Assembly: GCA_003505795.1 (NCBI GenBank)
Contig: DNXT01000303.1
Location: forward strand, 1-57,729
Source: Lysobacteraceae bacterium
GTDB taxonomy: Bacteria; Pseudomonadota; Gammaproteobacteria; Xanthomonadales; Xanthomonadaceae
DNA: 57,729 nt
Direction: 5' to 3'
Shown here: piece by piece, positions 2,920-23,976 of the stretch
How positions within the stretch are numbered: position 1 is the first letter of the stretch
Layout of the letters: each line of letters opens with the position of its first letter
Made by a program: the position numbers and the translations under genes
The notes under the pieces: model-generated
Databases searched by the model: none
Told to the model about the DNA's origin: nothing
Seen by the model: the letters and a program-made list of their open reading frames with translations, nothing else

Positions 2920-2923
2920 CGGC

Positions 2924-4749: not shown

Positions 4750-6812
4750 TGAAGGCCTTGTTCTCGCTGATGTGGTCGGAGAAGCGCGACCTGCTGCTGG
4801 TGCTGCTGATCGTCGGCATCCTGATGGCGTTGTTCGTGCCGGTACCCGCTCCGCTGCTGGACTTCCTGCTGGTGATCAACATCAGCCTGGCGCTGCTGGT
4901 GCTGCTGGTGACTTTCTTCACGGAGTCGCCGCTCAATTTTTCCACGTTCCCGACGTTGCTGCTGATCGCCACGATGTTCCGCCTGGCGCTGAATGTCTCG
5001 GCCACCCGTTTGATCCTCGACGGCGCCGATGCCGGGCGGGTGATCGGCGCGATCGGCTCGTTCGTGATCGGTGGCAACTACGTGGTCGGCATCGTGGTGT
5101 TCCTGATCCTGGTGGTTGTGCAGTACGTGGTGGTCACCAACGGCGCGCAGCGCGTGGCCGAGGTTGCGGCGCGCTTCACCCTGGACAGCATGCCCGGCAA
5201 GCAGATGAGCATCGATGCCGACATGAACATGGGCCTGATCGACGAGCACGAGGCGCGCCGTCGCCGTGCCACGATCGAGAAGGAGGCCAACTTCTACGGC
5301 GCGATGGACGGCGCCACCAAGTTCGTCAAGGGCGACGCCATCGCGGGCATCGTCATCATCCTGATCAACATCGTCGGTGGCCTGGCCATCGGCATCGCCC
5401 AGATGGGCATGCCATGGACGGAAGCGGTGCAGCGCTTCACCCTGCTGACGGTGGGCGACGGCATCGTCACCCAGATTCCGTCGCTGGTGATCGCCGTGGC
5501 CACAGGCATCATCATCACCCGTGCCGCCGCCGACGCGCGGCTCGGCACCGAGATCCCGCGGCAGGTGCTGTCCAGCCCACGCGCCCTGGCGGTGGTGGCG
5601 CTGGCACTGATGGTGATCCTGCTGCTGCCGGGCTTCCCCAAGCTGCCGGTGCTGGTCGTGCTGGCCGGCGTGCTGGCATTGTGCTGGTACGCGTTCCGCC
5701 AGGCGTCGCAGCAGTCGGAAGAGGAGGAAGCCGATGCCGCCCACGCAGCGGATGCGCCGAGCCCGCAGCTGGACGCGCTGCAGCAGGCGCTGCGGGTGGA
5801 ACCGATCGAGATCCGCATGGGCGGCAGCGTGCATCAGCTGCTGTTGGGGCCGACGGGCGACCTGCAGGAGCGCATCGACCACCTGCGCACCCAGGTGGCG
5901 GGAGAGCTGGGTTTCATCGTCCCGCGTATCCAGACCAGCGTACGCCCGGAACTGGACACCCATGCCTACGAGCTGATGGTACAAGGCCATCGCGCAGGGC
6001 AGGGCAGCCTGCTGCCCGACCGCGTCCTGGCCATCAATCCGGGAGGCTCGCGGCCGCTGCTGGAGGGCACCGACACCCGCGATCCTGCATACGGCCTGCC
6101 CGCGCAGTGGATCGATCCGGCGGCACGCCAGTTCGCGCGCGGCGCCGGCTACACGCTGGTCGAGCCGGATACCGTGTTGATCACGCACCTCAACGAGGTG
6201 ATCAAGCGCCAGGCTCCGGAACTGCTGACCCGCGCCGAAACGGAACGGATGATCCGCCGCATGAAGGAGCAATGCGGGCCGATGATCGAGGAGCTGATCC
6301 CGAACATCCTCAGCTACTCCGACGTGCAGAAGACCCTGCAGCTGCTGCTGCGCGAACAGGTCAGCATCCGCAACCTGGAGGCCATCCTCGAAGTGCTGGT
6401 GGATGCCGGACGCAGTGTCAAGGCGCCGGAAGAACTGGCCGAGAAGGTCCGCGAGCGACTCGGACCCGGCATATGCCAGCGCTTCAACGATCCCAAGGGC
6501 GATTTCAACGTGCTGACCCTGGCGCCGGAAGTGGAGCGCGTGCTGATGGGCAACCAGCGCGCGGCCGACGGACGCGGCGCCCTGTTCACCGACATGGCCC
6601 AGTTCGACGCCTTCATCAAGCACCTGGCGCGGCAGTCCGAAGCGATGATGGGCCGCAGCCTCAACCCGGTATTGCTGTGCCCGGCCCCGCTGCGGCGGCC
6701 GCTGCGGGGCCTGATCCAGCGATCGCTGCCGCACGTGGCGGTGATCGGCCTGAACGAAATTCCATCCAGCGCCGTGGTGCGTTCTTTCGCGGCAGTGGGG
6801 ACATCCAGTTGA
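4749..6812 (+). CDS. flhA: Export gate protein FlhA (SctV family)
   Basis: 687 aa with an FHIPEP-type signature (VVQYVVVTNGAQRVAEVAARFTLDSMPGKQMSIDAD) and a large cytoplasmic C-domain. ATG 4749 overlaps the flhB TGA. Confidence 0.95.
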   Translation: MKALFSLMWSEKRDLLLVLLIVGILMALFVPVPAPLLDFLLVINISLALLVLLVTFFTESPLNFSTFPTLLLIATMFRLALNVSATRLILDGADAGRVIGAIGSFVIGGNYVVGIVVFLILVVVQYVVVTNGAQRVAEVAARFTLDSMPGKQMSIDADMNMGLIDEHEARRRRATIEKEANFYGAMDGATKFVKGDAIAGIVIILINIVGGLAIGIAQMGMPWTEAVQRFTLLTVGDGIVTQIPSLVIAVATGIIITRAAADARLGTEIPRQVLSSPRALAVVALALMVILLLPGFPKLPVLVVLAGVLALCWYAFRQASQQSEEEEADAAHAADAPSPQLDALQQALRVEPIEIRMGGSVHQLLLGPTGDLQERIDHLRTQVAGELGFIVPRIQTSVRPELDTHAYELMVQGHRAGQGSLLPDRVLAINPGGSRPLLEGTDTRDPAYGLPAQWIDPAARQFARGAGYTLVEPDTVLITHLNEVIKRQAPELLTRAETERMIRRMKEQCGPMIEELIPNILSYSDVQKTLQLLLREQVSIRNLEAILEVLVDAGRSVKAPEELAEKVRERLGPGICQRFNDPKGDFNVLTLAPEVERVLMGNQRAADGRGALFTDMAQFDAFIKHLARQSEAMMGRSLNPVLLCPAPLRRPLRGLIQRSLPHVAVIGLNEIPSSAVVRSFAAVGTSS

Positions 6813-6822
6813 GGAACATGCG

Positions 6823-7491
6823 ATGAGCGATACGATCCAGGCCCTGGCCCGCGCCCTGAACGTGGATATCCAGGGTATCAACGCGGTCAGCCACAACGTG
6901 GCCAACATCAACACTCCCGGATTCCAGGGTGCGCGCGCGGTGCCGGACTTCGCCGCCACCACCGGGCTGAGCCGGCAGGTGGCGCTGGGCGATGGCCCGC
7001 TGAAGCCCACCGCGCGTACGCTGGACCTGGCGCTGCGCGGCGACGGCTTCTTCGTCCTCGACCGTGCGGGCCAGCCGCTGCTTACCCGCGCCGGCAGCTT
7101 CGTGCGTGATGCCGAGGGCTATCTGGTGGCGCGCTCGGGCGACCGGGTAATGACCGACGCCGGCGCCCTGCTGCTGCCCGAGGGCGAGGTGCGGGTCGAC
7201 GAGCAGGGGGTGGTCTGGTCCGAGGACCGTCGCCTGGCCCAGCTGTCGATCATGGCGGTGGCCGATGCCAGCCAACTGCAGGCCGTCGACGGCGGCTACC
7301 GCTACGCGGGCAACCTGCTGGCCTGGAACGGCCGAGTGCAGCAGGGCGCCATCGAACAATCCAACGTGGATGCCGCCGCGCAGACCCTGCAACTGATCGA
7401 ACTGACCCGGCACGCCGAGTCCGTGCAGCGCGTGGTGTCCATCTACGACCGCACCCTGGACGTGGGCATCAACCGCATTGGCGACAACTAA
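6823..7491 (+). CDS. flgF: Flagellar basal-body rod protein, FlgF-like
   Basis: The N-terminal rod motif (SHNVANINTPGFQG) and C-terminal motif (AIEQSNVDAAAQTLQLIELTRHAESVQRV) are both present. Confidence 0.75.
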   Translation: MSDTIQALARALNVDIQGINAVSHNVANINTPGFQGARAVPDFAATTGLSRQVALGDGPLKPTARTLDLALRGDGFFVLDRAGQPLLTRAGSFVRDAEGYLVARSGDRVMTDAGALLLPEGEVRVDEQGVVWSEDRRLAQLSIMAVADASQLQAVDGGYRYAGNLLAWNGRVQQGAIEQSNVDAAAQTLQLIELTRHAESVQRVVSIYDRTLDVGINRIGDN

Positions 7492-7497
7492 GGAGCT

Positions 7498-8271
7498 TTG
7501 ACCGTGATCGATGCACTCTACATCTCGTCGACCGGCCTGCGCAGCCAGCAGGAGCAGATCGACGTCATCTCCAACAACGTGGCCAACATGCAGACCCCGG
7601 GCTTCAAGCGCGGGCGGGTCAACTTCGCCGAGATCGCGGCCGCGCCGATGCCGGGCGAGACCATGGGTACCATGGTTGGCACCCATGGCGGCGGCGCACG
7701 GGTGATGTCGACCTCGCAGGAGTTCGTGGCCGGTGCGCTGCAGCCCACCCGCGGCCCGCTGGACATTGCCATCGACGGCAACGGGTTCTTCGAGCTGGAA
7801 GACCTCAACGGCAACCGCTTCTACACCCGCTCCGGCCGCTTCCACATGGATGACCAGGGCTATCTCGCCGCAACCAACGGCATGCGCCTGACCGGCAGCC
7901 CGCAGGTTCCGCAGGGTGCCAGTGAGGTGCTGATCTCGGCCAATGGCGAACTCAGCGCGCTGCTGGACGGCGGCGAGGAGCGCAGCGTGCTCGGCAGTAT
8001 CGAACTGGTGCTGTTCGCCACCACCGACGGCCTGGAATCGATTGGCGACAACCTGTTCCGCGCCGGCACGCGCAACGGCGGGCCGTTGGCGTCGGTCGCC
8101 GGGGAGGGAGGAGCCGGGCGCCTGCAGCAGGGCTACCTGGAGGCCGCCAACGTCGACATGATCGACGAGATGACCGGCCTGGTGCTGGCGCAGCGCGCCT
8201 ATCAGCTCAATGCCCGGGTCCTGCAGGCATCGGACCAGGTGCTGGAAACCATCAACAACCTGCGCCGCTGA
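7498..8271 (+). CDS. flgG: Distal rod protein FlgG
   Basis: TTG start after AGGAG. Contains SNNVANMQTPGFKR and the C-terminus GYLEAANVDMIDEMTGLVLAQRAYQLNARVLQASDQVLETINNLRR. Confidence 0.85.
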   Translation: MTVIDALYISSTGLRSQQEQIDVISNNVANMQTPGFKRGRVNFAEIAAAPMPGETMGTMVGTHGGGARVMSTSQEFVAGALQPTRGPLDIAIDGNGFFELEDLNGNRFYTRSGRFHMDDQGYLAATNGMRLTGSPQVPQGASEVLISANGELSALLDGGEERSVLGSIELVLFATTDGLESIGDNLFRAGTRNGGPLASVAGEGGAGRLQQGYLEAANVDMIDEMTGLVLAQRAYQLNARVLQASDQVLETINNLRR

Positions 8272-8984
8272 TGCACCACCTCCTGCGCTCCTGCCTGGCC
8301 TTGTCCGTGCTGCTGCCGTCCGTCGCGGCCGCGGCGACGGCGGTGCCTGCCGATCGCCTGATCGCAGCCGCCCAACTGCGGTTGCAGGAACGCGCCGCGG
8401 GCATCCCGGGCGAGTGGCAGTTCCTGCCTGCCGGCACGGTCGGACCATCGACGGTGGAGCAGGACGGCGAACTCCGCGTCGAGGCCGGCGCCATCGACGG
8501 ACGCTGGCCACGCAGCCGCGTTGGCGTGCCGGTGCGGATCTTGGCGGGAGATGCGTTGCAGCAGGCGCGGATGCTGTGGTTCACCGTGCACGTCTGGCGC
8601 CAGGCGCAGGTGTATGCACGCGACATGCAGGCAGGTGAGCGCTCCGAAGACTTGGAGACGCAGGTGCGCCGCATCGACATCGCAGGGCACGGCGCCGAAG
8701 CGGCAATGCCGGACGGCGTCGGACTGCAGCCAGGCTTGCGCCTGCTGCGCAGCGTGCGCGCCGGACAACCGGTGCTGGCCAGCGACTTCGCGCAGATGCC
8801 GCTGGTGGCACGCAACACGCAGGTCGCGCTGCAGGTGCGGCGTGGCGGGGTGATGCTCAATACGGCGGCGACGGCGAGAGCGGACGCGGCCATCGGTGAA
8901 CGGGTGAGCGTGCTGCCCAGCGGGGCCACGCAATGGATCGAGGCGACGGTAAGGGGCCGCAATGAGGTGGCGATTGAAGACTGA
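8271..8984 (+). CDS. flgA: P-ring assembly chaperone FlgA
   Basis: Has a signal peptide and a C-terminal SAF-like part (GERVSVLPSGATQWIEATVRGRNEVAI). It sits upstream of flgH/flgI. Confidence 0.7.
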   Translation: MHHLLRSCLALSVLLPSVAAAATAVPADRLIAAAQLRLQERAAGIPGEWQFLPAGTVGPSTVEQDGELRVEAGAIDGRWPRSRVGVPVRILAGDALQQARMLWFTVHVWRQAQVYARDMQAGERSEDLETQVRRIDIAGHGAEAAMPDGVGLQPGLRLLRSVRAGQPVLASDFAQMPLVARNTQVALQVRRGGVMLNTAATARADAAIGERVSVLPSGATQWIEATVRGRNEVAIED

Positions 8985-9561
8985 CTCCATCATCGCGGCA
9001 GCGCTCGTGGCGCTGCTCGCCGGCCTGCCCGGCGCCGGCGCCGCGCAGCAAAGCCTGATCGAACCCGGCACCTACCGGGGCATCGCGGCCGACCGCCGCG
9101 CCTACCGAATAGGCGACATCCTGACCGTGAACGTGCTCGAAGCGGCGCGTGCGCGCTCCAGCGCCGCGACCGATGCCAATTCCGACGTGCGCGTGCGCGC
9201 TTCGGCGTCCACGCCCGGCTACCAAGGCAGCGCGACCGGCACGCTGAGCGCAGGCAGTACCGGCGGAGCCGAGACCTCGCGCGCCGGCGAGCTGCGTACC
9301 CAGTTGTCGGTACGGGTAACGGACGTGCTGCCGGACGGGACCCTGGCAGTCGAGGGCGCACAGTCGCTGGTCATCAATGGCGAGGACCAGAAGATCATGC
9401 TCAGCGGACTGGTGCGGCCGGAGGACATCCGCAGCGACAACAGCCTGTGGTCGCACCGCATCGCCAACGCCCAGGTGGAGTTCAGCGGCTCGGGCGTGGT
9501 CAGCCAGTCGCAGCGGACGAGCATCGTATACCGCGCCCTGAAATGGCTGAGGCTGCTGTGA
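8962..9561 (+). CDS. flgH: L-ring protein FlgH (no cysteine anywhere in the ORF)
   Basis: FlgH motifs are present (YRIGDILTVNVLE, LAVEGAQSLVINGEDQKIMLSGLVRPEDI). Confidence 0.8.
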   Translation: MRWRLKTDSIIAAALVALLAGLPGAGAAQQSLIEPGTYRGIAADRRAYRIGDILTVNVLEAARARSSAATDANSDVRVRASASTPGYQGSATGTLSAGSTGGAETSRAGELRTQLSVRVTDVLPDGTLAVEGAQSLVINGEDQKIMLSGLVRPEDIRSDNSLWSHRIANAQVEFSGSGVVSQSQRTSIVYRALKWLRLL

Positions 9562-10673
9562 GGGTCCTGCTGCTCCTGGCGCTGGCGTGCCTGCCGTCCC
9601 TGGTCTCCGCCGCCGAAACGGGCGATGTGCGGGTCAAGGACATCGCCCGCATCGCCGGCGTGCGCGACAACCCGCTGACCGGGTATGGCCTGGTGTTCGG
9701 CCTGTCCGGTTCCGGCGACTCGCCGCGCAACCGCGCCACCCTGCAGTCGGTGTCCAACACCCTGCGCAACTTCGGCGTCAACGTCGAGCTGGGCGACCTG
9801 TCGAGCCGCAATGTGGCGGCGGTGCTGGTCACCGCCCGGCTGCCGGCGTTCGCCGAGCCGGGTCAGCAACTGGACGTGCAGGTGGCTTCTTCCGGCGACG
9901 CCCGCAGCCTGGTGGGCGGCACCCTGATGCTGGTTCCGCTGAGCGGTCCGGACGGACGGGTGTATGCCATCGCGCAGGGACCGATCTCGGTGGGCGGCTA
10001 TCAGTTCGAGGCCATCACCGCCTCGGTGCAGAAGAACCATCCAACGGTCGGCTGGATCCCGGCGGGCGCGACGGTGGAGCAAGGCTCGCCGCTTGGAGTG
10101 GTCGGCGACGGGCGCTCGCTGAGCGTGCTGCTCAACGAGCCGGACTTCACCGTTGCTCAGCATATGACCCAGGCCATCCGCGCCGCCCTGCCAGGCACCA
10201 CGGCCGTGGCCGACCATGCGGGCAAGGTCACGGTGGGCTTCGGCGAGGAGCATCCGGACCTGGTCGCGCGCATCGCCCAGATCGAGAACATCCGCATCGT
10301 TCGCGAACGACGCTCGCGGGTGGTGGTCAACGAACGCACCGGCACCATCGTCGCCGGCGGCGACATCCGCATCGGCCGGGTGAGCATTACCCACGGCGAC
10401 TTGCGCGTGGAGGTCAATACGCGCTACAGCGTGTCGCAGCCAGACGGTCTGCTGCTGCGCCCGGGCAGCGATGTGCGCACGGTACTGGTGCCGGAGAGCC
10501 GCATCGATGTCCAGGAAGGCGTTGCGCCGGTGGTATCGGTTGCCGAGGGCACCAGCGTGGCCGAATTGGTTTCGGCTCTGCGCACGATCAAGCTGACGAC
10601 CCGCGACGTCATCGCGGTGCTGCAATCGATCAAGGCGGCCGGCGCGCTCGATGGCGAACTGGTCATCCAATGA
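9543..10673 (+). CDS. flgI: P-ring protein FlgI
   Basis: A signal peptide is followed by VRVKDIARIAGVRDNPLTGYGLVFGLSGSGDS, and the C-terminus is LRTIKLTTRDVIAVLQSIKAAGAL. The start at ATG 9543 overlaps the flgH end. Confidence 0.9.
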   Translation: MAEAAVRVLLLLALACLPSLVSAAETGDVRVKDIARIAGVRDNPLTGYGLVFGLSGSGDSPRNRATLQSVSNTLRNFGVNVELGDLSSRNVAAVLVTARLPAFAEPGQQLDVQVASSGDARSLVGGTLMLVPLSGPDGRVYAIAQGPISVGGYQFEAITASVQKNHPTVGWIPAGATVEQGSPLGVVGDGRSLSVLLNEPDFTVAQHMTQAIRAALPGTTAVADHAGKVTVGFGEEHPDLVARIAQIENIRIVRERRSRVVVNERTGTIVAGGDIRIGRVSITHGDLRVEVNTRYSVSQPDGLLLRPGSDVRTVLVPESRIDVQEGVAPVVSVAEGTSVAELVSALRTIKLTTRDVIAVLQSIKAAGALDGELVIQ

Positions 10674-10682
10674 CAGGGGGAA

Positions 10683-11063
10683 ATGATGGCAAGTGAACTG
10701 ACTGTGGACGCTGTGCGCATGGCGCTCGACCTGAGCCGGATGCGCGCCGAGGTTACGGGCTGGAACATCGTCAATGCTTCGGTGCCAGGCGCTTCGTTCT
10801 TCGTGGTCGACCAGAGTGCGGCCGAGTCCGCGCTGGGCGTGGCCGCCGGCGAGGACACCGCGGCTGGATACCAGGCGCTGTCTGCGGCACGGAACTCGAG
10901 CCTGGCCCTGGTAGAGGAGCGCTTCGATGTGGCTCGTCCGGGACTGGACGAGCTGGTGGCAGATTCGGTTTCCGCGGGCCTGCAGTACCAGCTGCTGAGC
11001 GAGGCGCTGGGCCGCCATTTCGGCCTGATGCGCCTGGCCGTGACCGGCAGGAGCGGCGCATGA
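10683..11063 (+). CDS. flgB: Proximal rod protein, FlgB-like (divergent)
   Basis: 126-aa ORF immediately upstream of flgC, overlapping it by 4 nt. The rod N-terminal motif is weak (NIVNASVPG). Confidence 0.55.
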   Translation: MMASELTVDAVRMALDLSRMRAEVTGWNIVNASVPGASFFVVDQSAAESALGVAAGEDTAAGYQALSAARNSSLALVEERFDVARPGLDELVADSVSAGLQYQLLSEALGRHFGLMRLAVTGRSGA

Positions 11064-11443
11064 GCATCGACGCGATCCTCGAGGCCAGCCGCATGGGCAT
11101 GCAGAACGAGCGCATCCGGATGGACCTGGCCAGCCGCAACGTGGCGTTGGCCAATCAGCCGATCGACCCGCGCGCGCTCGGCAGCAGCGGCGCCGGCTTT
11201 GCCAGCGCGCTGGGCCTGCAGGGCAGCGAAGCCGCCGGCCAAGCGCCGATCGCGACCCGCTCGGTGCTCGACCCGGGCCATCCCCTGGCCGACGCCGAGG
11301 GACGGGTGCATTACCCGGCGGTGGACATAGTGCAGGAGATGACCACCTTGCTGACCGCCAGCCGAGGCTACGAAGCCAACGTGAGGTCGTTCAACACCCT
11401 GCGCAGCATGGTGCTCAGGGCCATGGAGATCGGAGCGAAGTGA
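11060..11443 (+). CDS. flgC: Proximal rod protein FlgC
   Basis: The C-terminal signature is present (VHYPAVDIVQEMTTLLTASRGYEANVRSFNTLRSM). Confidence 0.85.
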   Translation: MSIDAILEASRMGMQNERIRMDLASRNVALANQPIDPRALGSSGAGFASALGLQGSEAAGQAPIATRSVLDPGHPLADAEGRVHYPAVDIVQEMTTLLTASRGYEANVRSFNTLRSMVLRAMEIGAK

Positions 11444-11739
11444 TGGGAATCGAAGCGATCGCCGCCCTGGGGGCGGCTGCGGGTCCGGCCGAGGCGCAGG
11501 CATCGATGGCGGTGCCGCGCAGCGATTTCGCCGCAGTGGTGGGCCAAGGCGTGCAGGGCGTGGACGGCACGCTGAAGAACGCCGATCAGTTGGTACGCGC
11601 GCTTGCGGCAGGGCAGGACGTGGCCACCCATGACGTGATGATCTCGCTGGAGGAGGCGCGCATGCAGTTGATGCTGCTGTCCGAAGTGCGCAACCGCGTG
11701 GTCGAGGCGTACCAGGAACTGTCGCGGATGCAACTGTAA
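11440..11739 (+). CDS. fliE: MS ring/rod adaptor FliE
   Basis: 99 aa with a C-terminus typical of FliE (HDVMISLEEARMQLMLLSEVRNRVVEAYQELSRMQL). Confidence 0.75.
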   Translation: MMGIEAIAALGAAAGPAEAQASMAVPRSDFAAVVGQGVQGVDGTLKNADQLVRALAAGQDVATHDVMISLEEARMQLMLLSEVRNRVVEAYQELSRMQL

Positions 11740-11741
11740 CG

Positions 11742-13115
11742 ATGGCTCCCTTGACCCCGGCGATGGACATGTTCAGATCGATGAGCCGCACCGCGCGCCT
11801 CGGCATCGTGATAGGTGGCGGCGTGATCCTGTTGGGCACGGCGCTGGCGTTGTGGCTGGTGCTGTCGCCACGACAGGAACTGCTGTTCGGCAATCTGGCC
11901 GAAACTGATGCCGCGGAGATCGCGGCGACCCTGGGCGAATGGAAGGTGCCGTACTCGCTGGCAGCCGATGGCACCGCGATCCTTGTGGACAGCAGGCACA
12001 TGCTCGACACGCGGATGCGACTGGTCTCCGCCGGAGTTCCCAAGGGCGGGCACGTCGGCTACGAGTTGTTCGACGACAACGAATTCGGCGTCACCGAGTT
12101 CGCCCAGCGCATCAACTACCAGCGCGCACTGCAGGGCGAACTGGAGCGCACCATCGGCAGCATCCCCGGCGTGCGCAACGTGCGCGTGCACCTGTCGATC
12201 CGCCGTGCCGGCTCCTTCCTTGGCGAGGACGCCAGTTCCAAGGCTTCGGTTGCACTGGCGCTGGAACCGGGAACCACGTTGGCGCGCAGGCAGGTGGCCG
12301 GCATCCGCAACCTGGTCGCCTCGGCCGTGGAAGGCCTGGGCCCGGAATCGGTAGTGGTCGTCGGCCCTGCCGGCCTGCAACTGGCAGGCGGCAACCAGGC
12401 CGAGGGCGAGGCGGTCGTGGAAGGCGCGGATGCAGCCTCGGACATGTCGGCACGAATCGAGACCCGGATCCAACAGCTGCTGGGCGACGCGCTGCAGGGG
12501 CAGCGTACCTCGGTATCGGTCGACGTGCGCATGAACTTCGACAAGGTCCGGCGGACGTCGGAGAAGCTGCTGACCATGCCCGGCTCGGACCATGGCGTGG
12601 TCGTGCGCCGCAACAGCGGCGGCGGCCGGCCGGCCGAAGGTCCCGGCGAGGCGGCGCTGACCAACGAGCAAGTCGAGTATGCCCACGGCAGCGAGCGCGA
12701 AGAAGTCACGCGCGTGGGCGGCGTGGTCGAACGCATCACGGTGGCGGTAGTGCTGCCGCGTGGCGTGGCTACTGCCGAGCAGGAGCACCTGACCCGGCTG
12801 GTTGCCGCCGCGGCAGGCCTGGACCCGGCTCGCGGCGATAGCATCGAGGTGAGCACAGCCGCCGAGCCGCCTGCGACTGGCAATGCGGTTGCCCGGGCAC
12901 CCGAGGCACAACCGGTACGATCGATGACGCAGACCGATGCGTCGTGGCAGCCGCAGGCCAGGCACGGCTGGCTGCTGTTCGCCTTCGTGCTGGGGCTGGG
13001 CGTTGGTGTGCTGGCGATGGCGCGGCGCCGGCGTGCACCGCCGCTGCTGAGCCGCGAGGAAAGCGAGCGGGCGGCGATCCAGGTCCGCGCCTGGCTGACG
13101 GATGGAGTGCGCTGA
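11742..13115 (+). CDS. fliF: MS-ring protein FliF (457 aa, short for the family)
   Basis: Contains a YscJ/FliF signature (YELFDDNEFGVTEFAQRINYQRALQGELERTIGSIPGVRNVRVHL), N- and C-terminal TM helices and a short cytoplasmic tail. Confidence 0.85.
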   Translation: MAPLTPAMDMFRSMSRTARLGIVIGGGVILLGTALALWLVLSPRQELLFGNLAETDAAEIAATLGEWKVPYSLAADGTAILVDSRHMLDTRMRLVSAGVPKGGHVGYELFDDNEFGVTEFAQRINYQRALQGELERTIGSIPGVRNVRVHLSIRRAGSFLGEDASSKASVALALEPGTTLARRQVAGIRNLVASAVEGLGPESVVVVGPAGLQLAGGNQAEGEAVVEGADAASDMSARIETRIQQLLGDALQGQRTSVSVDVRMNFDKVRRTSEKLLTMPGSDHGVVVRRNSGGGRPAEGPGEAALTNEQVEYAHGSEREEVTRVGGVVERITVAVVLPRGVATAEQEHLTRLVAAAAGLDPARGDSIEVSTAAEPPATGNAVARAPEAQPVRSMTQTDASWQPQARHGWLLFAFVLGLGVGVLAMARRRRAPPLLSREESERAAIQVRAWLTDGVR

Positions 13116-13564
13116 TGGAACCCAGCGCCATCCGCCGCGCCGCGATCGTGCTGGCCGCCATGCAGCCGCCGGTGCGCGTACGTCTGTTGGCCACGCTGGA
13201 CCCGGCCATGCGAGCCGAACTCGGCTCGGCCATGCAGGAGGCGATGCAGCGTGGCTGGAACACGCGCTCGCTGGCGTTGCGGATGCTGGATCCGACGCAA
13301 GCGGAGGCAGAGCCGCAGGGCGATCAGGGACTGCCGGCGGTGTTCGCGCTCGCCGACCACCTGGAACCCGCCGCGTTCGCGCGCGTGCTGCAGGCTACGG
13401 GCATGCGTAGCGATGACTTCCGGTTGAGCATGATCGACGACGCCGGCGCTGCGGCCCGGGTGCGCGAAGAGATGATGGACGCGCCGGCGATGTCCGCACG
13501 GCTGCGCGAGGCCACCCTCGCGGCCGCCAATTCCATGCTGGACGATCTACGGAGCGCCGGCTGA
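13115..13564 (+). CDS. fliG: FliG-position protein, 149 aa, with resemblance only to the FliG N-terminal domain
   Basis: ATG 13115 overlaps the fliF TGA. The N-terminus AIRRAAIVLAAMQPPVRVRLLATLDPAMRAELGSAM resembles the FliG_N helices. The length is less than half of canonical FliG. Confidence 0.55.
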   Translation: MEPSAIRRAAIVLAAMQPPVRVRLLATLDPAMRAELGSAMQEAMQRGWNTRSLALRMLDPTQAEAEPQGDQGLPAVFALADHLEPAAFARVLQATGMRSDDFRLSMIDDAGAAARVREEMMDAPAMSARLREATLAAANSMLDDLRSAG

Positions 13565-13565
13565 G

Positions 13566-14240
13566 ATGCGCCGGATCGACGCCTGCGACGTCGCTGCCGC
13601 GCCATTGTGGACGGGATCGGCGGCGGCCGGACCTGTCGCACCAGTCGTCGATGCAAGCGCCCAGGATGCACGTCGGCAGATGGAGGCACAGCAGGCGGCT
13701 GCGGTGGAGCGGGGCTATCAGGAGGGTCATGCACGCGGGTTGGCACAGGCACAGGAACGCGTGCGCCAGGAGAACCAGGCTTGGCGGCAGCAGCGCGAGC
13801 GCGAGCTCGATGCGGCACGCGAACAATTCGAACAGGCACGCGAGCGACTGGAGTCGCTGACCCGGCAGTTGCCGGTGCAGATCGCCGCCGAGGCCGCGCG
13901 TGCCGAAGAGCTGGCCATCGAGACCGCCTACGCGGCGGTGACCAGACTGCTTGGCTCCGACTATATCGAGCGCAACCTGATGCCGGCGCTGGTGCGTCAT
14001 GCGATGGGCAGCCTCGAGATGCGCGTGGACGCCATCCTGCTGTCGGCGCAGGACGTGGAACTGCTGCAGGGCATGGAAAACCTGAACGTTGCCGTCGATG
14101 CCCGTCTCAGGCCCGGGCAGTGCCGCCTGGAAACCCGGCTGGGCAGCTACGACACCGGCTTGGATGTCAGGCTGGACATGCTCAGGCAGGCCCTGCTGTC
14201 GGGACTGGCCGAGCATCGCGCGCACGAGGCGGAGCAATGA
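13566..14240 (+). CDS. fliH: ATPase regulator FliH-like
   Basis: 224 aa with a charged coiled-coil centre (QERVRQENQAWRQQRERELDAAREQFEQARERL). It lies directly upstream of fliI and overlaps it. Confidence 0.65.
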   Translation: MRRIDACDVAAAPLWTGSAAAGPVAPVVDASAQDARRQMEAQQAAAVERGYQEGHARGLAQAQERVRQENQAWRQQRERELDAAREQFEQARERLESLTRQLPVQIAAEAARAEELAIETAYAAVTRLLGSDYIERNLMPALVRHAMGSLEMRVDAILLSAQDVELLQGMENLNVAVDARLRPGQCRLETRLGSYDTGLDVRLDMLRQALLSGLAEHRAHEAEQ

Positions 14241-15562
14241 GTCTGCAGGTTCGACTGCAGTCCGCGCTGGATCGTACCGAGATGCATCGGCGACAGGGAC
14301 GCATCGTCGCCTTCAACGGCCTGGTCATCGAGGCGCAGGGACCGGACGCCGACATCGGCGAGCTGTGCGACATCGTGCCCGGCAACGGCCGCGCGACAGT
14401 GCCGGGCGAGGTGGTGGGCTTCCGGAAGGAACATGTGCTGCTGATGCCGTATGGCAATGTCAGCGGCATCTCCGCGCGCAGCCTGATCCGTGCCACGGGG
14501 CGGCCGCTGGATGTGCCGGTCGGCAAGGAACTGCTCGGCCGCGTGGTGGACGCCTTCTGCCGGCCGCTGGACGACAAGGGTGCGCTGCAGCCGGGCGGGC
14601 GTTATCCGCTGCACGCCGCGCCGATCAATCCGATGCAGCGCCAGGGCATCAGCGAGGTGCTGGAGACTGGACTGAGCGCGGTGGACACGCTGCTGACGTT
14701 GGGCAGAGGACAGCGCGTGGGCGTGTTCGCCGGCAGCGGTGTCGGCAAGAGCACCCTGCTGGGCATGCTGGCCCGGCATGTGCAGGCCGACGTCATCGTG
14801 CTGTGCCTGGTCGGCGAACGCGGACGCGAGGTCGGCGACTTCATCCGCGATACGCTGGGCGAGACGGGACTGCGCCGCGCGGTGGTCATGGCCGCCACCG
14901 CGGACCAGCCCGCCCTGGTACGCACCCATGCGGTGCACGCTTCGCACGCGGTGGCCGAGTATTTCCGCGACGAGGGCAAGTCGGTCCTGCTGGTGGTCGA
15001 TTCGATCACCCGCTTCGCGATGGCCCAGCGCGAGATCGGCCTGGCCATCGGCGAGCCGCCGACCTTCCGCGGCTATACGCCATCGGTGTTCGGCTGGCTC
15101 CCACGCATCGTCGAGCGCTGCGGCCGCCATGGCCGCGGCGATATCACCGCCATCTACAGTGTGCTGGTGGAGGGCGACGACATGAACGAACCCATCGCCG
15201 ACCACATGCGCGCCGTGCTGGACGGGCACATCGTGCTGACTCGCGAACTGGCACTGCGCGGCCATCTTCCCGCCATCGATGTCCTGCAGAGCACCAGCCG
15301 CCTGCTGCACACCCTTGCCCGGCCGGAAGAACTGGCGCTGGCCCGGGAGGCGCGACGCCTGCTGGCGCAGTACGAGGCGGCGCGCGACATGATCGAGCTC
15401 GGTGCCTACCAGCGTGGCAGCAACCAGGCGCTGGACCGGGCGGTCGAGGCCTGCAGCGCGCTCGACTCGCTGTTGTGCCAGTCGCCGGAGACGGCGGTGT
15501 CACGCCTACAGGCGCTGCAGCAGCTGGGCCGCATCGTCTCCGCCGGAGGCACGCATGCATAA
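14237..15562 (+). CDS. fliI: Type III export ATPase FliI
   Basis: Walker A (GSGVGKST) and Walker B region (VLLVVDSITRFAMAQREI) are present, and the protein is F1-beta-like throughout. Confidence 0.95.
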   Translation: MSLQVRLQSALDRTEMHRRQGRIVAFNGLVIEAQGPDADIGELCDIVPGNGRATVPGEVVGFRKEHVLLMPYGNVSGISARSLIRATGRPLDVPVGKELLGRVVDAFCRPLDDKGALQPGGRYPLHAAPINPMQRQGISEVLETGLSAVDTLLTLGRGQRVGVFAGSGVGKSTLLGMLARHVQADVIVLCLVGERGREVGDFIRDTLGETGLRRAVVMAATADQPALVRTHAVHASHAVAEYFRDEGKSVLLVVDSITRFAMAQREIGLAIGEPPTFRGYTPSVFGWLPRIVERCGRHGRGDITAIYSVLVEGDDMNEPIADHMRAVLDGHIVLTRELALRGHLPAIDVLQSTSRLLHTLARPEELALAREARRLLAQYEAARDMIELGAYQRGSNQALDRAVEACSALDSLLCQSPETAVSRLQALQQLGRIVSAGGTHA

Positions 15563-16007
15563 GCACCGGCTACAGCAGATGCAGGCACTGGCGCGCGTGC
15601 GCGGGCTGGCCGAGCAGCGGGCAGAATTGGTGACGCAGCAGGCGGCGCAGGCGCTGCGACACGCGAACGACCTGCTGCAGGAGGCGAACGACCGGGTGGA
15701 CGCGGCGACCCGCTGGAAGGCAGGGTCCGCCGTGGCGGCCGGGCTACGTCTGGGCCTGTACGAGCAAGCGCTGGTGTCCGAGCAGGTCCTGTCGGTTGCC
15801 GCCGAATCCGCCGACAGCACCCGGTCGCGGGTCAGGCAGGCTCACGAGCAGAGCAGGGAGCAGTTGCTCCAGGCCAGCCGCGCGCTCGAGGTCGCACAGC
15901 GACGGCTGCAACGCGGAACGCGCGCCGCTGCAGACGCGATGGAGCGCAAGCAGAGCGACGACGCGGCCGATCTCTGGTTGTCAAGGAAGCTCCATGCAGA
16001 TCGGTGA
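15555..16007 (+). CDS. fliJ: FliJ-like export chaperone/stalk
   Basis: 150-aa predicted coiled coil directly after fliI, overlapping it by 8 nt. Confidence 0.6.
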   Translation: MHKHRLQQMQALARVRGLAEQRAELVTQQAAQALRHANDLLQEANDRVDAATRWKAGSAVAAGLRLGLYEQALVSEQVLSVAAESADSTRSRVRQAHEQSREQLLQASRALEVAQRRLQRGTRAAADAMERKQSDDAADLWLSRKLHADR

Positions 16008-16725
16008 TCCAGCCATCCACGCCGTCACGCCGATCGCGGAACGGCAGCCGCAGGGCAAGCCGTCGAACCGCCAGGACTTTGAGCGGACGCTCGCTGCGGA
16101 TGCGCCTGCCGCCGATGTCCCGGCGTCGGCGGGCGTGCACGGAGACGCCATAGATGTGCCGACTGGTGCCGACGCACCCGTTGCACAGGATGGAGCCGGC
16201 CTGGACGGGCTGCCGGGCGGGGTGCTCTATCCTTGGCAGTTGATGGCGCAGACAGCAATGTCCCAGCTCGGCCAGCATGCGTACAGCACTGCCGCCCGGG
16301 CCGATGGCCTGACGACCCACGACGGGATACAGATCGTTCAGAAGGGCACGATATCCAATACTGCAGTTGCCCTCGCTGCCGCCGTTGCCTCCCATGGCAC
16401 GACTGAGGTTCATGCCGTAACCCTCGCGAGAAGCGGCGATACGGCATCCGCCATCATGAAAGACATGCGTGGCACCGCATCCGCAGGCGCCGAGCAGGCG
16501 TTGGCCTCGCTGCCCACCTGGTCCAAGCGTTTCCAGCGTCGGGTCGAGGACGCCCAGGGCCGTGCCACGGTCTGGCTGCGTGACTACCAGCTGGGCGAGC
16601 AGGGGCTGGCCTCCACCATCGACGAGATCATCGCGTCTTACGGCCCGTCGCGGCCGGTCTGGCGCATCGTGGTCAACGGCAGCGAAGTCTGGCGTCGACC
16701 GTCCAATCCATCCGAGGAGACGTAA
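15994..16725 (+). CDS. Short hook-length-control-like protein (FliK/SctP position), 243 aa
   Basis: The call is positional: it lies between fliJ and flgD. It has an Ala/Pro/Asp-rich low-complexity N-half and a structured C-terminus (ATVWLRDYQLGEQGLASTIDEIIA). Confidence 0.4.
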   Translation: MQIGDPAIHAVTPIAERQPQGKPSNRQDFERTLAADAPAADVPASAGVHGDAIDVPTGADAPVAQDGAGLDGLPGGVLYPWQLMAQTAMSQLGQHAYSTAARADGLTTHDGIQIVQKGTISNTAVALAAAVASHGTTEVHAVTLARSGDTASAIMKDMRGTASAGAEQALASLPTWSKRFQRRVEDAQGRATVWLRDYQLGEQGLASTIDEIIASYGPSRPVWRIVVNGSEVWRRPSNPSEET

Positions 16726-17141
16726 TGGCCATCGACGCAATCGGTGCCGTGGTGAACAACGGCAGTTCCAGCGTACAGGCGCGCAACACCATCGACCAGG
16801 AAGGCTTCATCAAGCTGTTCCTGTCGCAGCTGCAGTTCCAGGATCCGCTGGAGCCGGTGGACAACCGCGAATTCCTCGCACAGTTGGCGCAATTCAGCAA
16901 TCTGGAACAGTCCCGCCAGCTGAGCATCAACATGGAAGGCATGCTGACCATGGAGTCGTCCAGCCAGGCGCTGGGTTTGCTCAACCGCTCGGTGGACATC
17001 GTGCAGGCGGCCGGCGGCAACATCGCCGGCACTGTCACCGCCGTGCAGTTCACAACCTCCGGCCCGGAACTGACGGTGAACACCGCCGTCGGCGTGCTGA
17101 CCGGCATTCGACTGCCCCAGGTGAGCCTGGTCAAACTCTAG
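16725..17141 (+). CDS. flgD: Hook capping protein FlgD
   Basis: The FlgD signature FIKLFLSQLQFQDPLEPVDNREFLAQLAQFSNLEQ is present. Confidence 0.85.
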   Translation: MAIDAIGAVVNNGSSSVQARNTIDQEGFIKLFLSQLQFQDPLEPVDNREFLAQLAQFSNLEQSRQLSINMEGMLTMESSSQALGLLNRSVDIVQAAGGNIAGTVTAVQFTTSGPELTVNTAVGVLTGIRLPQVSLVKL

Positions 17142-17151
17142 GAATCCAACC

Positions 17152-18309
17152 GTGTTCCAAGCATTGTTCAACAGCCTCTCCGGCCTGTTCGGCTTCTCAC
17201 GCAGCCTGGATACGGTCAGCAACAACGTCGCAAATATGAATACCCCCGGCTTCCGGGGGCGCGACTCGTTCTTCGAGAACGTTGGTCGCGACCATGGCAC
17301 CCGGATCGCAGGCGAGGGCATGCGCACCGCCGCAGGCGACCTGCGCCAGACCGGCAATGCCACCGACGTGGCGGTGGACGGCGCCGGCTTCTTCGCGTTG
17401 CGCGACGAGTCGGGGACGCTGCACTACACGCGGGCCGGCCAGTTCATGTTCGACGACGACGGCATCCTGATCGACAGCGTCAGCCGCTTCCAGGTGATGG
17501 CACTGGACAGCTCGGGCAATCTTGCGTCGATCTCGCTGGAAGGCTATCGCTCGTTGCCTGCCGAGCCATCGACCAAGATCAACTTCAGCGGCAACCTCGC
17601 GCCGGCGGAGGAGACACACAAGGTCGAAGGCATCACGATCTACGACGCTTCCGGCAAGAGCCACGTGCTCACGGCGCAGTTCACCAACAACAAGAACGTG
17701 ACGCCGAACAGTTTCCTGGTCAAAGTCACCGATGCCCAAGGCAGCGAGGTGGGCAATGGCGAGCTGCGTTTCAGCGTGTCCGGGACTCTGGAGCCGGGCT
17801 ACGGCTCCATCGCGCTGGCGCTCGAGTTCGAGGGGACGGCGCAGGGGGTGGAGCTGTCGTTCGGCACACCGGGTACCTTCCAGGGCACGACCAGCCTGGC
17901 CGGCCTCAGCAACAACGTCAGCGCCACCGTGGCCGATGGCCGGCCGGTGCTGGGCATTACCCAGATGTCCTTCGACGAGAAAGGTACGCTGCAATTCAAC
18001 TATGGCACCAGCGAGAAACGCGAAGGCCAGAGGTTGGCGCTGGCCAGCTTCATCAGCGAAAGCACCCTGGACTTCAGTGGCGGACGCTTGGTATCCGGTG
18101 CCGATGCCCAGCGCCGGCTACTGGCGCATGCCGATACCGGAGGCCTGGGCAAGGTCATGGGTGGCACGCTGGAGATGTCCAACATCGACCTGACCCAGGA
18201 GTTCGCCGACATGCTGATCATCCAACGCGGCTACCAGGCCAGTTCGCGGGTGATGACCGTCAGCAACGAGATGATCGAGCAGCTCTACAACAGTACCCGC
18301 GGCGGCTGA
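17152..18309 (+). CDS. flgE: Hook protein FlgE (385 aa)
   Basis: GTG start. The N-terminal motif is SNNVANMNTPGFRG and the C-terminus is LEMSNIDLTQEFADMLIIQRGYQASSRVMTVSNEMIEQLYN. Confidence 0.85.
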   Translation: MFQALFNSLSGLFGFSRSLDTVSNNVANMNTPGFRGRDSFFENVGRDHGTRIAGEGMRTAAGDLRQTGNATDVAVDGAGFFALRDESGTLHYTRAGQFMFDDDGILIDSVSRFQVMALDSSGNLASISLEGYRSLPAEPSTKINFSGNLAPAEETHKVEGITIYDASGKSHVLTAQFTNNKNVTPNSFLVKVTDAQGSEVGNGELRFSVSGTLEPGYGSIALALEFEGTAQGVELSFGTPGTFQGTTSLAGLSNNVSATVADGRPVLGITQMSFDEKGTLQFNYGTSEKREGQRLALASFISESTLDFSGGRLVSGADAQRRLLAHADTGGLGKVMGGTLEMSNIDLTQEFADMLIIQRGYQASSRVMTVSNEMIEQLYNSTRGG

Positions 18310-18313
18310 ACAG

Positions 18314-19054
18314 ATGATACGGATCGGTTGGCAGGGAACGACGCGCGCGGCGCAGCTGAAACATTTGCTTGGCACAGGATTGCAGGCCTGGCGCGACGAC
18401 TGGTTGTCCGGGCGGTGGCCCGATGCCTGCATCAAGGAATGGGATCGGCAGGTGGAACCGGGCGACGGCAGCCGCCTCGATTGGTTGCTGCGCGACGCAC
18501 AAGGGGCGGCGATGTGGATCCGGGCAGATGCCGCAGTGGAGCAGCTCCTCGGTCGCGGCGTACTGGAACTGGACTGTGGACAGGGAGACCGCCTGGTCCG
18601 CGAGGTGGGCACGCGCTGCTTCGCCGCGTTGTGCGCGCAACTGTGGGGAGGCGAGGACACGCCGGCCGCGGAACTGGAAAACCGTGACGATTTCCGCGAG
18701 TTCGAGCTCCGTCACGGAGGCCTTGGGTTCTGCATCGATGGCCTTGCCGGCACCATCCGCATCGCCGTCAATCGTTCCTGGTGCGTGGAGCGGCTGCCGT
18801 TCTCCACACCGAACCTGGCGCGGCCGGCGCTATCGACCCGGCGCAGTGCGCTCGCGCCGGCTGCAGTCAAGATCCAGGCGGCTATCGAGCTGGGCAGCAT
18901 CGAGCTGCTCGATTCGCTGCAGCTCCAGGTGGGCGAAGTACTGCTCACCGACGTCTCGCGCAACCCTGCCGTCACGCTCTCCACCAGCTCCGGGCGCCTG
19001 GCAACCGGGCGGATCGATCCGGATCGGCAGGCCAGGACGGTCGTACTGGATTGA
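18314..19054 (+). CDS. C-ring protein with C-terminal SpoA domain (FliM/SctQ-like), lacking the FliM N-terminal CheY-P binding peptide
   Basis: The C-terminal SpoA-like segment is IQAAIELGSIELLDSLQLQVGEVLLTD...LSTSSGRLATGRI. It sits upstream of fliN. The N-terminus is unlike canonical FliM. Confidence 0.55.
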   Translation: MIRIGWQGTTRAAQLKHLLGTGLQAWRDDWLSGRWPDACIKEWDRQVEPGDGSRLDWLLRDAQGAAMWIRADAAVEQLLGRGVLELDCGQGDRLVREVGTRCFAALCAQLWGGEDTPAAELENRDDFREFELRHGGLGFCIDGLAGTIRIAVNRSWCVERLPFSTPNLARPALSTRRSALAPAAVKIQAAIELGSIELLDSLQLQVGEVLLTDVSRNPAVTLSTSSGRLATGRIDPDRQARTVVLD

Positions 19055-19110
19055 CCTCACCTTGCGCGGCCGCCTGCAGACCGCATCGCGAAATTCCTCT
19101 GGACGAACCC

Positions 19111-19365
19111 ATGAACAAAGAAATCGCAATCAACGAGAAGGACCTGAGCCTGCTGGGGCACGTCAAGGTTTCCTTGGTCGCCGAAATCGGCACTGCCGAA
19201 CTGACCGTGGAGCAGTTGTTCGCGCTGGGCAGCAAGGATCTGGTCACCCTTGACCAAGGCGTGGATGCGGAAGTGACCCTGTTGCTGAACGGTCGTCCCG
19301 TCGCCCGCGGCGAACTGGTGGCGATCGAGGACAAGCTGGGCATCCGCATCACGGAACTGGCCTGA
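19111..19365 (+). CDS. fliN: C-ring protein FliN (SpoA domain only, 84 aa)
   Basis: Sequence VSLVAEIGTAELTVEQLFALGSKDLVTLDQGVDAEVTLLLNGRPVARGELVAIEDKLGIRITEL is typical of FliN. Confidence 0.85.
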   Translation: MNKEIAINEKDLSLLGHVKVSLVAEIGTAELTVEQLFALGSKDLVTLDQGVDAEVTLLLNGRPVARGELVAIEDKLGIRITELA

Positions 19366-19367
19366 GC

Positions 19368-19742
19368 ATGCTCGTTGTGGCCCAACCGATACCATTCCGC
19401 TCCGATCCGGTGATCGGTGGCGACCAGGTGCTGTGGATCGTTCTGGCGACGGTCGGCCTGCTGGCGCTGGCCTTCGTCGTCCTCGTGCATCTGCGCAGGA
19501 AGGGTTGGCTGAATGCCTGGTCGGTCGGCAGGCCGCTACCGCAAGCACAGGTGCCGCCACGCTGGCAGGTGCAGAGCCAGCGCATCAGTCGTCGGACCAC
19601 AGTACACACGCTGAGTCGGGAGGGGAGTGCACTGCTGGTAGTGGAATCGCCCAACGGTGTCGCGGTGACTGCGCTGGACACGAAACCCGCCGTCCCGTCC
19701 ACCGAGGGAGGGATCGCCGATGGCACCAGCCAGTCTGAGTAA
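19368..19742 (+). CDS. fliO: FliO-like single-pass membrane protein
   Basis: Single TM helix (VLWIVLATVGLLALAFVVLVHL) in a gene located between fliN and fliP. Confidence 0.55.
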   Translation: MLVVAQPIPFRSDPVIGGDQVLWIVLATVGLLALAFVVLVHLRRKGWLNAWSVGRPLPQAQVPPRWQVQSQRISRRTTVHTLSREGSALLVVESPNGVAVTALDTKPAVPSTEGGIADGTSQSE

Positions 19743-20469: not shown

Positions 20470-20485
20470 GGCACAACCGGTCTAC

Positions 20486-21160: not shown

Positions 21161-21186
21161 GTTACATAATATACAGACAGCCCGAA
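21159..21186 (-). other. Left dif-like site: on the minus strand TTCGGGCTGTC-TGTATA-TTATGTAACCT (poor XerC arm, good XerD arm)
   Basis: Compared with E. coli dif GGTGCGCATAA-TGTATA-TTATGTTAAAT, the central region matches 6/6 and the XerD arm 8/11. Confidence 0.65.
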
Positions 21187-21592: not shown

Positions 21593-21661
21593 ACCGCCCC
21601 TCGCCCCCGGTGCCCTAGCCGGGGCAGGGGCAACTAGGGCGGCTAGGGCAGGGGATAGGGC

Positions 21662-23711: not shown

Positions 23712-23714
23712 TTC

Positions 23715-23966: not shown

Positions 23967-23976
23967 GGACATAGCA

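Follow-up and report, generated by a model that had tools for sequence, protein, structure and literature searches.

It is FliG alone that makes a rotary motor out of a type III export apparatus. A 57,729-nucleotide (nt) contig of a Lysobacteraceae bacterium (GenBank assembly GCA_003505795.1, contig DNXT01000303.1; this whole stretch of DNA is henceforth termed the window) carries a flagellum-derived gene cluster in which the position of fliG, between fliF and fliH, is taken by a short gene whose product we term mini-FliG. The cluster begins with fliQ, fliR, flhB, flhA, flgF, flgG, flgA, flgH, flgI, a flgB-like gene, flgC, fliE and fliF, and continues with mini-fliG, a fliH-like gene, fliI, fliJ-like and fliK-like genes, flgD, flgE, a fliM-like gene, fliN, a fliO-like gene, fliP and a gene for a fliA-like sigma factor. 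Our comparisons assign mini-FliG to the FliG superfamily and give no sign of the torque domain FliG_C, which it lost or never had; it probably acts as a static adaptor in a secretion machine.

The fliG-position open reading frame (ORF) has sharply defined borders. Its ATG (13115-13117) shares an ATGA overlap with the fliF stop codon (TGA, 13113-13115), a GGAG sits 8 nt 5' of this ATG, and its own TGA stop (13562-13564) is followed after a 1-nt gap by the fliH ATG at 13566. The guanine-cytosine (GC) contents of its three codon positions (0.75/0.52/0.86) are like those of fliF, fliH and flgE and unlike those of both alternative frames. Compared with a 90%-identical ortholog from another metagenome (locus L103), the ratio of nonsynonymous to synonymous substitution rates (dN/dS) is 0.27, with 0.12 for fliF and 0.39 for fliH; the fliE comparison was set aside because its pair was out of register. 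From the junctions, the codon-position GC and the dN/dS together, we conclude that the ORF is a real gene under constraint. A preliminary description made from the DNA letters had placed here an ORF of about 150 amino acids (aa) whose ATG overlaps the fliF TGA and which fliH follows 1 nt later, and our coordinates (149 aa) agree. It had also seen no downstream frame encoding FliG_MC that a sequencing error could have severed from this gene; in line with this, when all six frames of the window were searched at maximum sensitivity with FliG-domain hidden Markov models (HMMs), only the mini-FliG ORF was matched, and there only by the N and M models, with no FliG_C signal at E ≤ 1.

Orthologous short FliG proteins, which the preliminary description had proposed to look for in related genomes, were found both among sequence-cluster representatives and in named genomes. 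A word-indexed homolog search returned 4 proteins, each of 149 aa, when started from mini-FliG and 8 proteins when started from the family alignment. Searched exhaustively with HMMER (cut-off E ≤ 0.001), 1.84 billion cluster representatives yielded 43 members, none of them a full-length FliG; 40 measure 132-157 aa and the other three are shorter (81-111 aa, probably fragments). Hosts were surveyed by a genome scan seeded with FlgE, which is far better conserved than mini-FliG; a scan by mini-FliG patterns gave nothing, the 39-sequence alignment being too diverse for patterns. The FlgE-seeded scan placed the cluster in Xanthomonas arboricola, X. prunicola and Xanthomonas sp. NCPPB 1128, in Lysobacter (including L. 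enzymogenes 521), Dyella, Rhodanobacter, Stenotrophomonas ginsengisoli, Arenimonas and Novilysobacter, in Pseudomonas paralcaligenes, Kangiella, Pleionea and Pseudoalteromonas, and in Achromobacter, Caballeronia, Sphingomonas deserti and others. The family HMM locates mini-FliG ~4 kb upstream of flgE in 30 loci from named genomes, with lengths of 128-173 aa, mostly 141-160.

The arrangement around the gene is as constant as its length. The cluster order of the window is repeated in further loci (L001-L004, L006, L008, L009 and L103), and both junctions (the overlap with fliF and fliH 1-2 nt 3') recur together with the length in orthologous loci down to 21% identity, where the order is fliF (~452 aa), the mini gene, a fliH-like gene (223 aa), fliI, fliJ-like and fliK-like genes, flgD and flgE (385 aa). 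In five Lysobacter loci (L029, L031-L033 and L036, from L. hankyongensis, L. brunescens, Lysobacter sp. Root690, Lysobacter sp. BL-A-41-H3 and L. enzymogenes 521), FlgE orthologs are 51-58% identical and the neighbourhood is alike; mini-FliG was found in the first four of these species, and the L. enzymogenes 521 contig stops short of the fliG position. Judged by these homologs, short FliG is a widespread ~150-aa family present in dozens of genera and not specific to the window.

The relationship to FliG becomes visible at the level of the family. For the single sequence, the Pfam FliG_N model gave E = 0.076 (residues 6-42), below threshold, and NCBIfam gave no match; a 4-sequence profile likewise had no match in the PDB. 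The FliG signal emerged only with a 39-sequence family profile, for which 10 of 11 matches among all PDB sequences are FliG. The best of them is T. maritima FliG_N from a FliF_C:FliG_N complex (5tdy_B, E 4.6e-5, residues 5-64 against 8-68), followed by full-length Aquifex FliG (6.2e-5), matched at both its N and M repeats. Across the 39 members, Pfam found FliG_N in 11 (best 2.2e-5), MgtE_N in 10 (best 2.7e-4), FliG_M in 7 (best 3.3e-3) and FliG_C in a single one (0.075), and within the locus set the family HMM recognizes a canonical Nitrospirota FliG at 3.6e-7. The resemblance of the N-terminus to FliG_N that the preliminary description had noticed is thus weak for the protein alone and significant for the family profile. 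The weak MgtE_N matches stem from the fold that FliG and MgtE_N have in common; an MgtE N-terminal domain protein was considered as a candidate and ruled out, the 149 aa having neither CBS pairs nor the MgtE membrane domain.

AlphaFold2 (AF2), supplied with the 39-sequence alignment, predicted a two-module protein with a predicted local distance difference test (pLDDT) of 88, in which four helices (residues 3-58) and five helices (75-148) are separated by a disordered linker (63-74). In a Foldseek search of this model against the PDB, the top 17 matches were all FliG chains.

We assigned the two modules by domain-by-domain HHalign of a FliG profile against a 67-sequence alignment of the mini-FliG family. 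The FliG profile comprised 15 sequences from Proteobacteria, Bacillota, Actinomycetota, Nitrospirota and Vulcanimicrobiota, taken from tblastn on plasmids and chromids and from canonical loci; a homolog search with E. coli FliG was too narrow for a profile, since, apart from one protein at 66% identity, its matches were all Enterobacterales at ≥87%. Residues 1-62 matched FliG 1-62 (N1) at 88.6% (E 2.6e-6) and the FliG_M core at 86%, compared with 0.9% for ARM_C and 1.2% for FliG_C; this clear match covers only the first ~60 of the ~100 residues of FliG_N, and its conserved positions are R7, K8, A10, L11, R21, L25, L28, P29 and L58. Residues 72-149 matched FliG_M at 64% (E 6.5e-5, end-to-end with FliG 113-188) and FliG N1 at 35%, compared with 1.6% for ARM_C and 9.5% for FliG_C; conserved here are L79, L83, A89, R90, L92, A94, F102, L107, D/E108, A113, V116, P127, L130 and A133. 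As controls, FliG_N against FliG_M gave 95%, as expected of internal repeats, FliG_C against N or M 9-20%, and the mini-FliG halves against each other 63%. By this measure both modules are of the N/M type and, against FliG_C, indistinguishable from background.

The torque helix of FliG_C, by which FliG contacts MotA, is charged (R281/D288/D289 in E. coli), and the mini-FliG family alignment contains no conserved R...DD...R charge pattern of this kind. A resemblance of the C-terminal helices to this torque helix and to a 'GPVR' motif, picked out by eye, did not hold up in HHalign (9.5% against FliG_C). The absence of a torque-generating C-terminal domain, which the preliminary description had deduced from the length of the ORF, is supported by HHalign, Pfam, the charge pattern and the six-frame search; the single hint to the contrary comes from the Foldseek superpositions given below. 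Its comparison of the N-terminus with the FliF-binding N domain was right in that a docking-type N module is present; the protein has, in addition, a second, FliG_M-like module (residues 75-149).

The presumed docking partner is encoded directly upstream. The window's FliF is ~100 aa shorter than that of E. coli (552 aa), with ~30 cytoplasmic residues past its second membrane helix, and it ends in ...ERAAIQVRAWLTDGVR (the '...IQVRAWLTD' motif), a pattern it shares with E. coli (...VVALVIRQWINNDHE) and Rossellomorea (...VVKLLRTWMNEDR). The motif is kept in distant orthologous clusters (...AAAKIRAWLAEE..., ...REKLKVWLAED...). In solved complexes (structures 5tdy and 5wuj) this terminal helix of FliF is gripped by FliG_N. 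Since the motif is retained, an N-type first module would be expected in mini-FliG, and an N-like module followed by an M-like one is the order we favour because of collinearity with FliG and the evidence from the FliF tail.

The remaining switch proteins are reduced as well. The FliM homolog, encoded after flgE, has no Pfam match; its orthologs gave FliN/FliM matches in jackhmmer. Because its alignment spans FliM 51-339, it lacks the first ~50 residues with the N-terminal peptide that binds phosphorylated CheY (CheY-P), which implies that the C-ring would receive no chemotactic switching input. FliN is a bare SpoA domain. All three switch proteins are thus trimmed to their structural cores. 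The FlgB-like, FliH-like, FliJ-like and FliK-like ORFs are either unmatched or far under cut-off in Pfam and NCBIfam, and such strong divergence is probably why the Lysobacter papers discussed below list genes of this kind as 'lost'.

No homolog of MotA, FliC, FliD, FlgL or FliL was detected in the window; no search was made for MotB, and the FlgK query cross-matched rod and hook proteins and so does not bear on flgK. The motA part of the earlier observation that the window holds no stator genes is thereby upheld. The same five proteins and canonical FliG are absent within 10 kb of flgE at ~40 atypical loci, and canonical flagellar loci from the same scan, serving as positive controls, do show those genes.

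Table 1. Features of the window discussed in the text (positions in nt from the first letter of the contig).
Feature	Position	Strand	Description and evidence
Whole flagellum-derived cluster	2656..21160	+	Pfam and NCBIfam annotation; order shared with orthologous loci
mini-FliG gene	13115..13564	+	149 aa + stop; translationally coupled to fliF, abuts fliH
N-terminal module of mini-FliG	13115..13300	+	residues 1-62, four helices; like first ARM-like half of FliG_N, equally FliG_M; pLDDT 86-97
Linker of mini-FliG	13301..13336	+	residues 63-74; variable, no conserved column; pLDDT <50 for residues 65-72
C-terminal module of mini-FliG	13337..13561	+	residues 75-149, five helices; apparent second FliG N/M-type module, best match FliG_M
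fliF	11742..13115	+	457 aa; Pfam YscJ_FliF 9.9e-53, YscJ_FliF_C 4.6e-15; NCBIfam fliF 7.8e-59
FliF cytoplasmic C-terminal tail	13044..13112	+	LLSREESERAAIQVRAWLTDGVR; terminal-helix motif of canonical FliF retained
fliH-like	13566..14240	+	224 aa, highly diverged; Pfam FliH 0.0033; NCBIfam FliH / SctL-HrpE 5e-9 to 1e-3, far under cut-off
fliI	14237..15562	+	export ATPase, 441 aa; ~46% identical to E. coli / Ralstonia FliI
FliM homolog	18314..19054	+	246 aa, after flgE; HHalign 96.8%, E 2.5e-10, FliM 51-339; C-terminal SpoA domain
fliN	19111..19365	+	84 aa, bare SpoA domain; Pfam FliMN_C 3.9e-19
FlgB-like ORF	10683-11063		highly diverged
FliJ-like ORF	about 15555-16007		highly diverged
FliK-like ORF	about 16003-16725		243 aa, highly diverged
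Prophage: HTH regulator	21162-21527	-	
Prophage: Rep ORF2/G2P	22574-23239		
Prophage: small coat-like ORFs	23715-24234		
Prophage: phrog_4454 protein			470 aa
Prophage: minor coat protein	25726-26049		
Prophage: Zot-like assembly ATPase	26046-27227		

The age of the system can be gauged from its export ATPase. Its FliI shares ~46% identity with the FliI of E. coli and of Ralstonia and ~44% with YscN; the E. coli and Ralstonia proteins share 65%. With a FliI about equidistant from flagellar FliI and from SctN, and the canonical pair at 65%, the system is an old lineage. In a neighbour-joining (NJ) tree with 200 bootstraps, the FliI of this system grouped with those of beta-/gamma-proteobacterial flagella in 3 of 200 replicates, and in 1 of 200 the main atypical group fell with the injectisomes; the tree is rough and its deep nodes are weak, with 38% for monophyly of the main atypical group and 8% for that of the flagellar sequences. 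On this evidence, the system is not a recent copy of beta-/gamma-proteobacterial flagellar genes. X. arboricola has an ordinary flagellar cluster as well (PMC4686621), and together with the FliI distance this indicates that the system is additional to the flagellum of its host and not a decayed copy of it.

Decay has occurred elsewhere in the family. On the Ralstonia solanacearum YC45 megaplasmid (CP011998.1, 509096-538397; locus L105), FlgI and FliF have been broken up into several ORFs, and both flgD and flgE are gone; fliI is intact (55.6% identical to that of the window), and the mini-FliG homolog, ACH51_18925, is annotated as 'hypothetical protein'. The same replicon also bears a canonical fliI and an injectisome ATPase gene. 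Two other loci, from Povalibacter uvarum (L061) and a Steroidobacter metagenome-assembled genome (L062), encode at the fliG position a ~180-aa protein that weakly matches both the mini-FliG and the full FliG HMMs. Their FliI sequences form a separate, 100%-supported pair apart from the main atypical group, and these loci may represent either a further kind of reduced system or a transitional form.

We consider it probable that mini-FliG is a static adaptor between FliF and the C-ring in a non-rotating hook-basal-body secretion machine; the contacts, the lack of rotation and the role in secretion are all inferred from the comparisons above. In this model, the N-terminal module would bind the C-terminal helix conserved in FliF, in the manner of FliG_N, and the second, FliG_M-like module would dock the reduced C-ring made of the FliM homolog without CheY-binding peptide and the 84-aa FliN. 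The C-ring, in turn, would hold a FliH-FliI-FliJ ATPase complex beneath the export gate. Such a machine would build rod, L/P rings and hook, with no junction, filament or cap, and would serve type III export or secretion, the function reported for the corresponding Lysobacter enzymogenes system described below. We read the MS-ring/C-ring unit as a static platform and not a rotor because FliG_C, stator, CheY input and filament are all missing. The preliminary description had arrived at an adaptor lacking a rotor-stator interface, and the missing FliG_C and the absence of motA from the cluster support that view.

Several observations weigh against a static N- plus M-type adaptor. Every Foldseek E-value is weak (0.4-9) and none is significant; FliG_M-only chains are absent among the matches, and the best local superpositions are with FliG_C-only chains (1qc7 and 8ucs_H; template modelling (TM) score 0.58-0.63 of target, root-mean-square deviation 3.1-3.8 Å, E 2.5-9). 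The EHPQR motif for FliM binding is not conserved, a Pro alone being present in about half of the members. FliG_N and FliG_M being internal repeats, the ancestry of either module, N or M, lies beyond what the sequence alone can tell. The top whole-protein HHalign register aligns mini-FliG with FliG 126-282 (M + ARM_C, 75-79%), above FliG 2-175 (38%), X. arboricola also has a canonical flagellum (PMC4686621), so that stators exist in some of the cells, and the link to the L. enzymogenes OH11 system is drawn from gene content and Lysobacter loci. Part of this would suit a protein composed of FliG_M and a degenerate FliG_C, whose second module engages stators encoded elsewhere, for example by the host's canonical flagellum, in a machine that rotates: the register just mentioned, the FliG_C superpositions (TM 0.58-0.63 for 1qc7, 0.59 for 8ucs_H), one of them on a MotAB-bound chain, and the canonical flagellum with stators owned by some hosts (Xanthomonas, Pseudomonas). 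We regard such a rotating machine as unlikely. Splitting the protein into domains with N/M/C cross-controls left the M + ARM_C extension unsupported, as residues 72-149 score against FliG_C and ARM_C no better than the 9-20% background; among the 39 members Pfam found FliG_C once (E 0.075), the charges of a torque helix show no conservation, FliF keeps its FliG_N-binding motif, and the ~40 loci hold neither motA nor a filament to turn. Lysobacter, moreover, is reported to lack motAB altogether and yet to keep and use the system (PMC9927559).

Other readings place the gene differently in evolution or function. It is very improbable, in our view, that the cluster is a third ancient type III branch, neither ordinary flagellum nor injectisome, whose N+M-only FliG preserves a pre-motility state or the first step to a static secretion platform, in parallel with or even leading to SctK-type adaptors; this idea draws on the near-equidistance of FliI from both sides and on the reported position of Xylophilus FlhA3 outside the flagellar clade. 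The ysc and hrp operons have the order sctJ-sctK-sctL. With fliF-X-fliH paralleling it, a size near that of SctK and a similar predicted linking role, mini-FliG might be a flagellar-side counterpart or ancestor-like form of SctK and the cluster an intermediate between flagellum and injectisome, as the FliI distances and the matches of FliN in orthologs to the SepQ_C Pfam model would also allow. We hold this to be very unlikely: no SctK, OrgA or PscK chain appeared among the PDB sequence or Foldseek matches (E ≤ 10), the main atypical FliI group fell with the injectisome (non-flagellar type III) clade in a single one of 200 NJ bootstraps, and the system has FlgB/C/F/G, FliE, L/P rings and a hook (FlgD, FlgE) but no secretin, needle or SctD. 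Chaperones are common among the small all-helical proteins of flagellar operons, and the sub-threshold single-sequence Pfam match (E 0.076) could fit an export chaperone or regulator (FliS/FliT/FlgN-like, or of anti-sigma type) that merely sits in the fliF-fliH slot. The family profile is, however, specific for FliG, both in the PDB search and in Foldseek, no chaperone family came up in Pfam, NCBIfam or PDB searches, and the coupling to fliF, the position and the FliF tail motif fit a stoichiometric structural partner, which makes this reading highly improbable. Hardly credible at all is a truncated fliG pseudogene without function of its own in a cluster that is being lost. The Lysobacter literature does call the cluster genes 'remaining' (PMC7688988, PMC9927559) and the YC45 copy is visibly decayed, but a constant ~150 aa, intact translational coupling, orthologs of 21-90% identity in many genera, a dN/dS of 0.27 with a third-position GC of 0.86, a well-packed two-module fold (pLDDT 88), coexistence with a canonical flagellum in Xanthomonas and a FliI only ~46% identical to beta-/gamma-proteobacterial FliI all speak against a remnant.

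The surroundings of the cluster were also annotated. Directly 5' of fliQ and on the same strand (325-2646), genes for two TPR-repeat proteins of 186 and 425 aa are found together with a 129-aa ORF that has no matches. Directly 3' of the sigma-factor gene is an inovirus-like (filamentous) prophage (21162-27227), in which GC falls to 58-60%. At 45846-57713, a FecR-type anti-sigma regulator precedes three TonB-dependent receptors (842, 757 and 843 aa), one with an STN domain; this arrangement, typical of cell-surface signalling and iron uptake, appears unrelated to mini-FliG. The remaining content of the window is metabolic genes.

What is new here is the mini-FliG family at the fliG position; its host, the 'FT3SS-like' system, is already partly known. 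Combined with a CheY-blind FliM and the lack of stator and filament, mini-FliG would offer a natural experiment that parts the role of the C-ring in assembly and export from its role as a motor. Our results would correct the published picture of the Lysobacter system, in which fliG, fliM, fliH and fliJ are lost, and probably that of Xylophilus FlhA3 likewise, and they portray the system as a separate machine beside ordinary flagella in Xanthomonas and Pseudomonas. Both L. enzymogenes and X. arboricola can be cultured and manipulated genetically, and could serve as models for the exaptation of a flagellum to secretion, a step postulated for the origin of injectisomes. The family HMM would allow genes now annotated as 'hypothetical protein' to be named.

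Among the closest known systems is that of L. enzymogenes OH11, a non-flagellated strain that is reported to keep flgC, D, E, G, H, I, fliF, fliN, fliI and flhA/B and to be without fliC, fliD, flgK/L and motA/B, and that has fliG, fliM, fliH, fliJ, flgB and fliE described as 'missing' or too diverged, possibly among hypothetical proteins (PMC7688988, PMC9927559). OH11 expresses these genes and secretes FlgD, and both its export of three toxic proteins and its killing of yeast depend on FliI and FlhB; the cluster was treated as genes 'remaining' after flagellar loss (PMC7688988, PMC9927559). For this kind of system, protein export in the absence of motility is known from the OH11 work only. The gene content of the window's cluster matches this 'FT3SS-like system', and the cluster type is present in several Lysobacter, L. 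enzymogenes 521 included; it differs in that diverged homologs of fliG, fliM, fliH, fliJ, flgB and fliE are in place here, and in that it coexists with a normal flagellum in Xanthomonas. A flagellin-less cluster described in Xylophilus as 'FlhA3' (FlgABCDEFGHI, FlhAB, FliAEFHIJMNOPQR) branches, by its FlhA3, outside the ordinary flagellar clade and is patchily distributed (PMC13436205, 2026). Its inventory is identical to that of the window, a likeness judged by gene content and by loci of the betaproteobacteria Achromobacter, Caballeronia and Ralstonia YC45, and the window's system is probably of this type; the paper contains no analysis of the protein at the fliG position (PMC13436205), and our literature search, which did not cover subscription journals, found none that identifies or analyses it. 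With its full export gate, ATPase, MS ring, rod, L/P rings, hook and hook cap, the cluster thus matches by gene content the flagellin-less 'FT3SS-like' or FlhA3-type systems.

Canonical FliG (~330 aa; FliG_N + FliG_M + FliG_C) shares with mini-FliG the slot between fliF and fliH, an ARM-like module, the FliF tail and a FliG-like predicted fold. Mini-FliG is less than half as long and lacks FliG_C, ARM_C, the second half of FliG_N, helix NM, the EHPQR motif and the torque charges. SctK, the adaptor of the injectisome sorting platform, is likewise a small cytoplasmic protein encoded between an inner-ring gene and sctL/fliH, with a predicted static link from the ring to the FliM/SctQ pods; the two have no detected similarity of sequence or fold and the membrane partner of SctK, SctD, is absent here, so the parallel is one of analogy only. 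Buchnera aphidicola makes filament-less hook-basal bodies with a FliG of normal length. The reduced 'Myxo' type III secretion system of Myxococcales is without FlgBCDEK, FliE, FliG and FlgH (Abby & Rocha 2012, PMC3459982). Like both of these, the window's system is flagellum-derived, has shed motility parts and is thought to serve protein export; unlike them, it keeps the whole axial structure together with a cut-down FliG.

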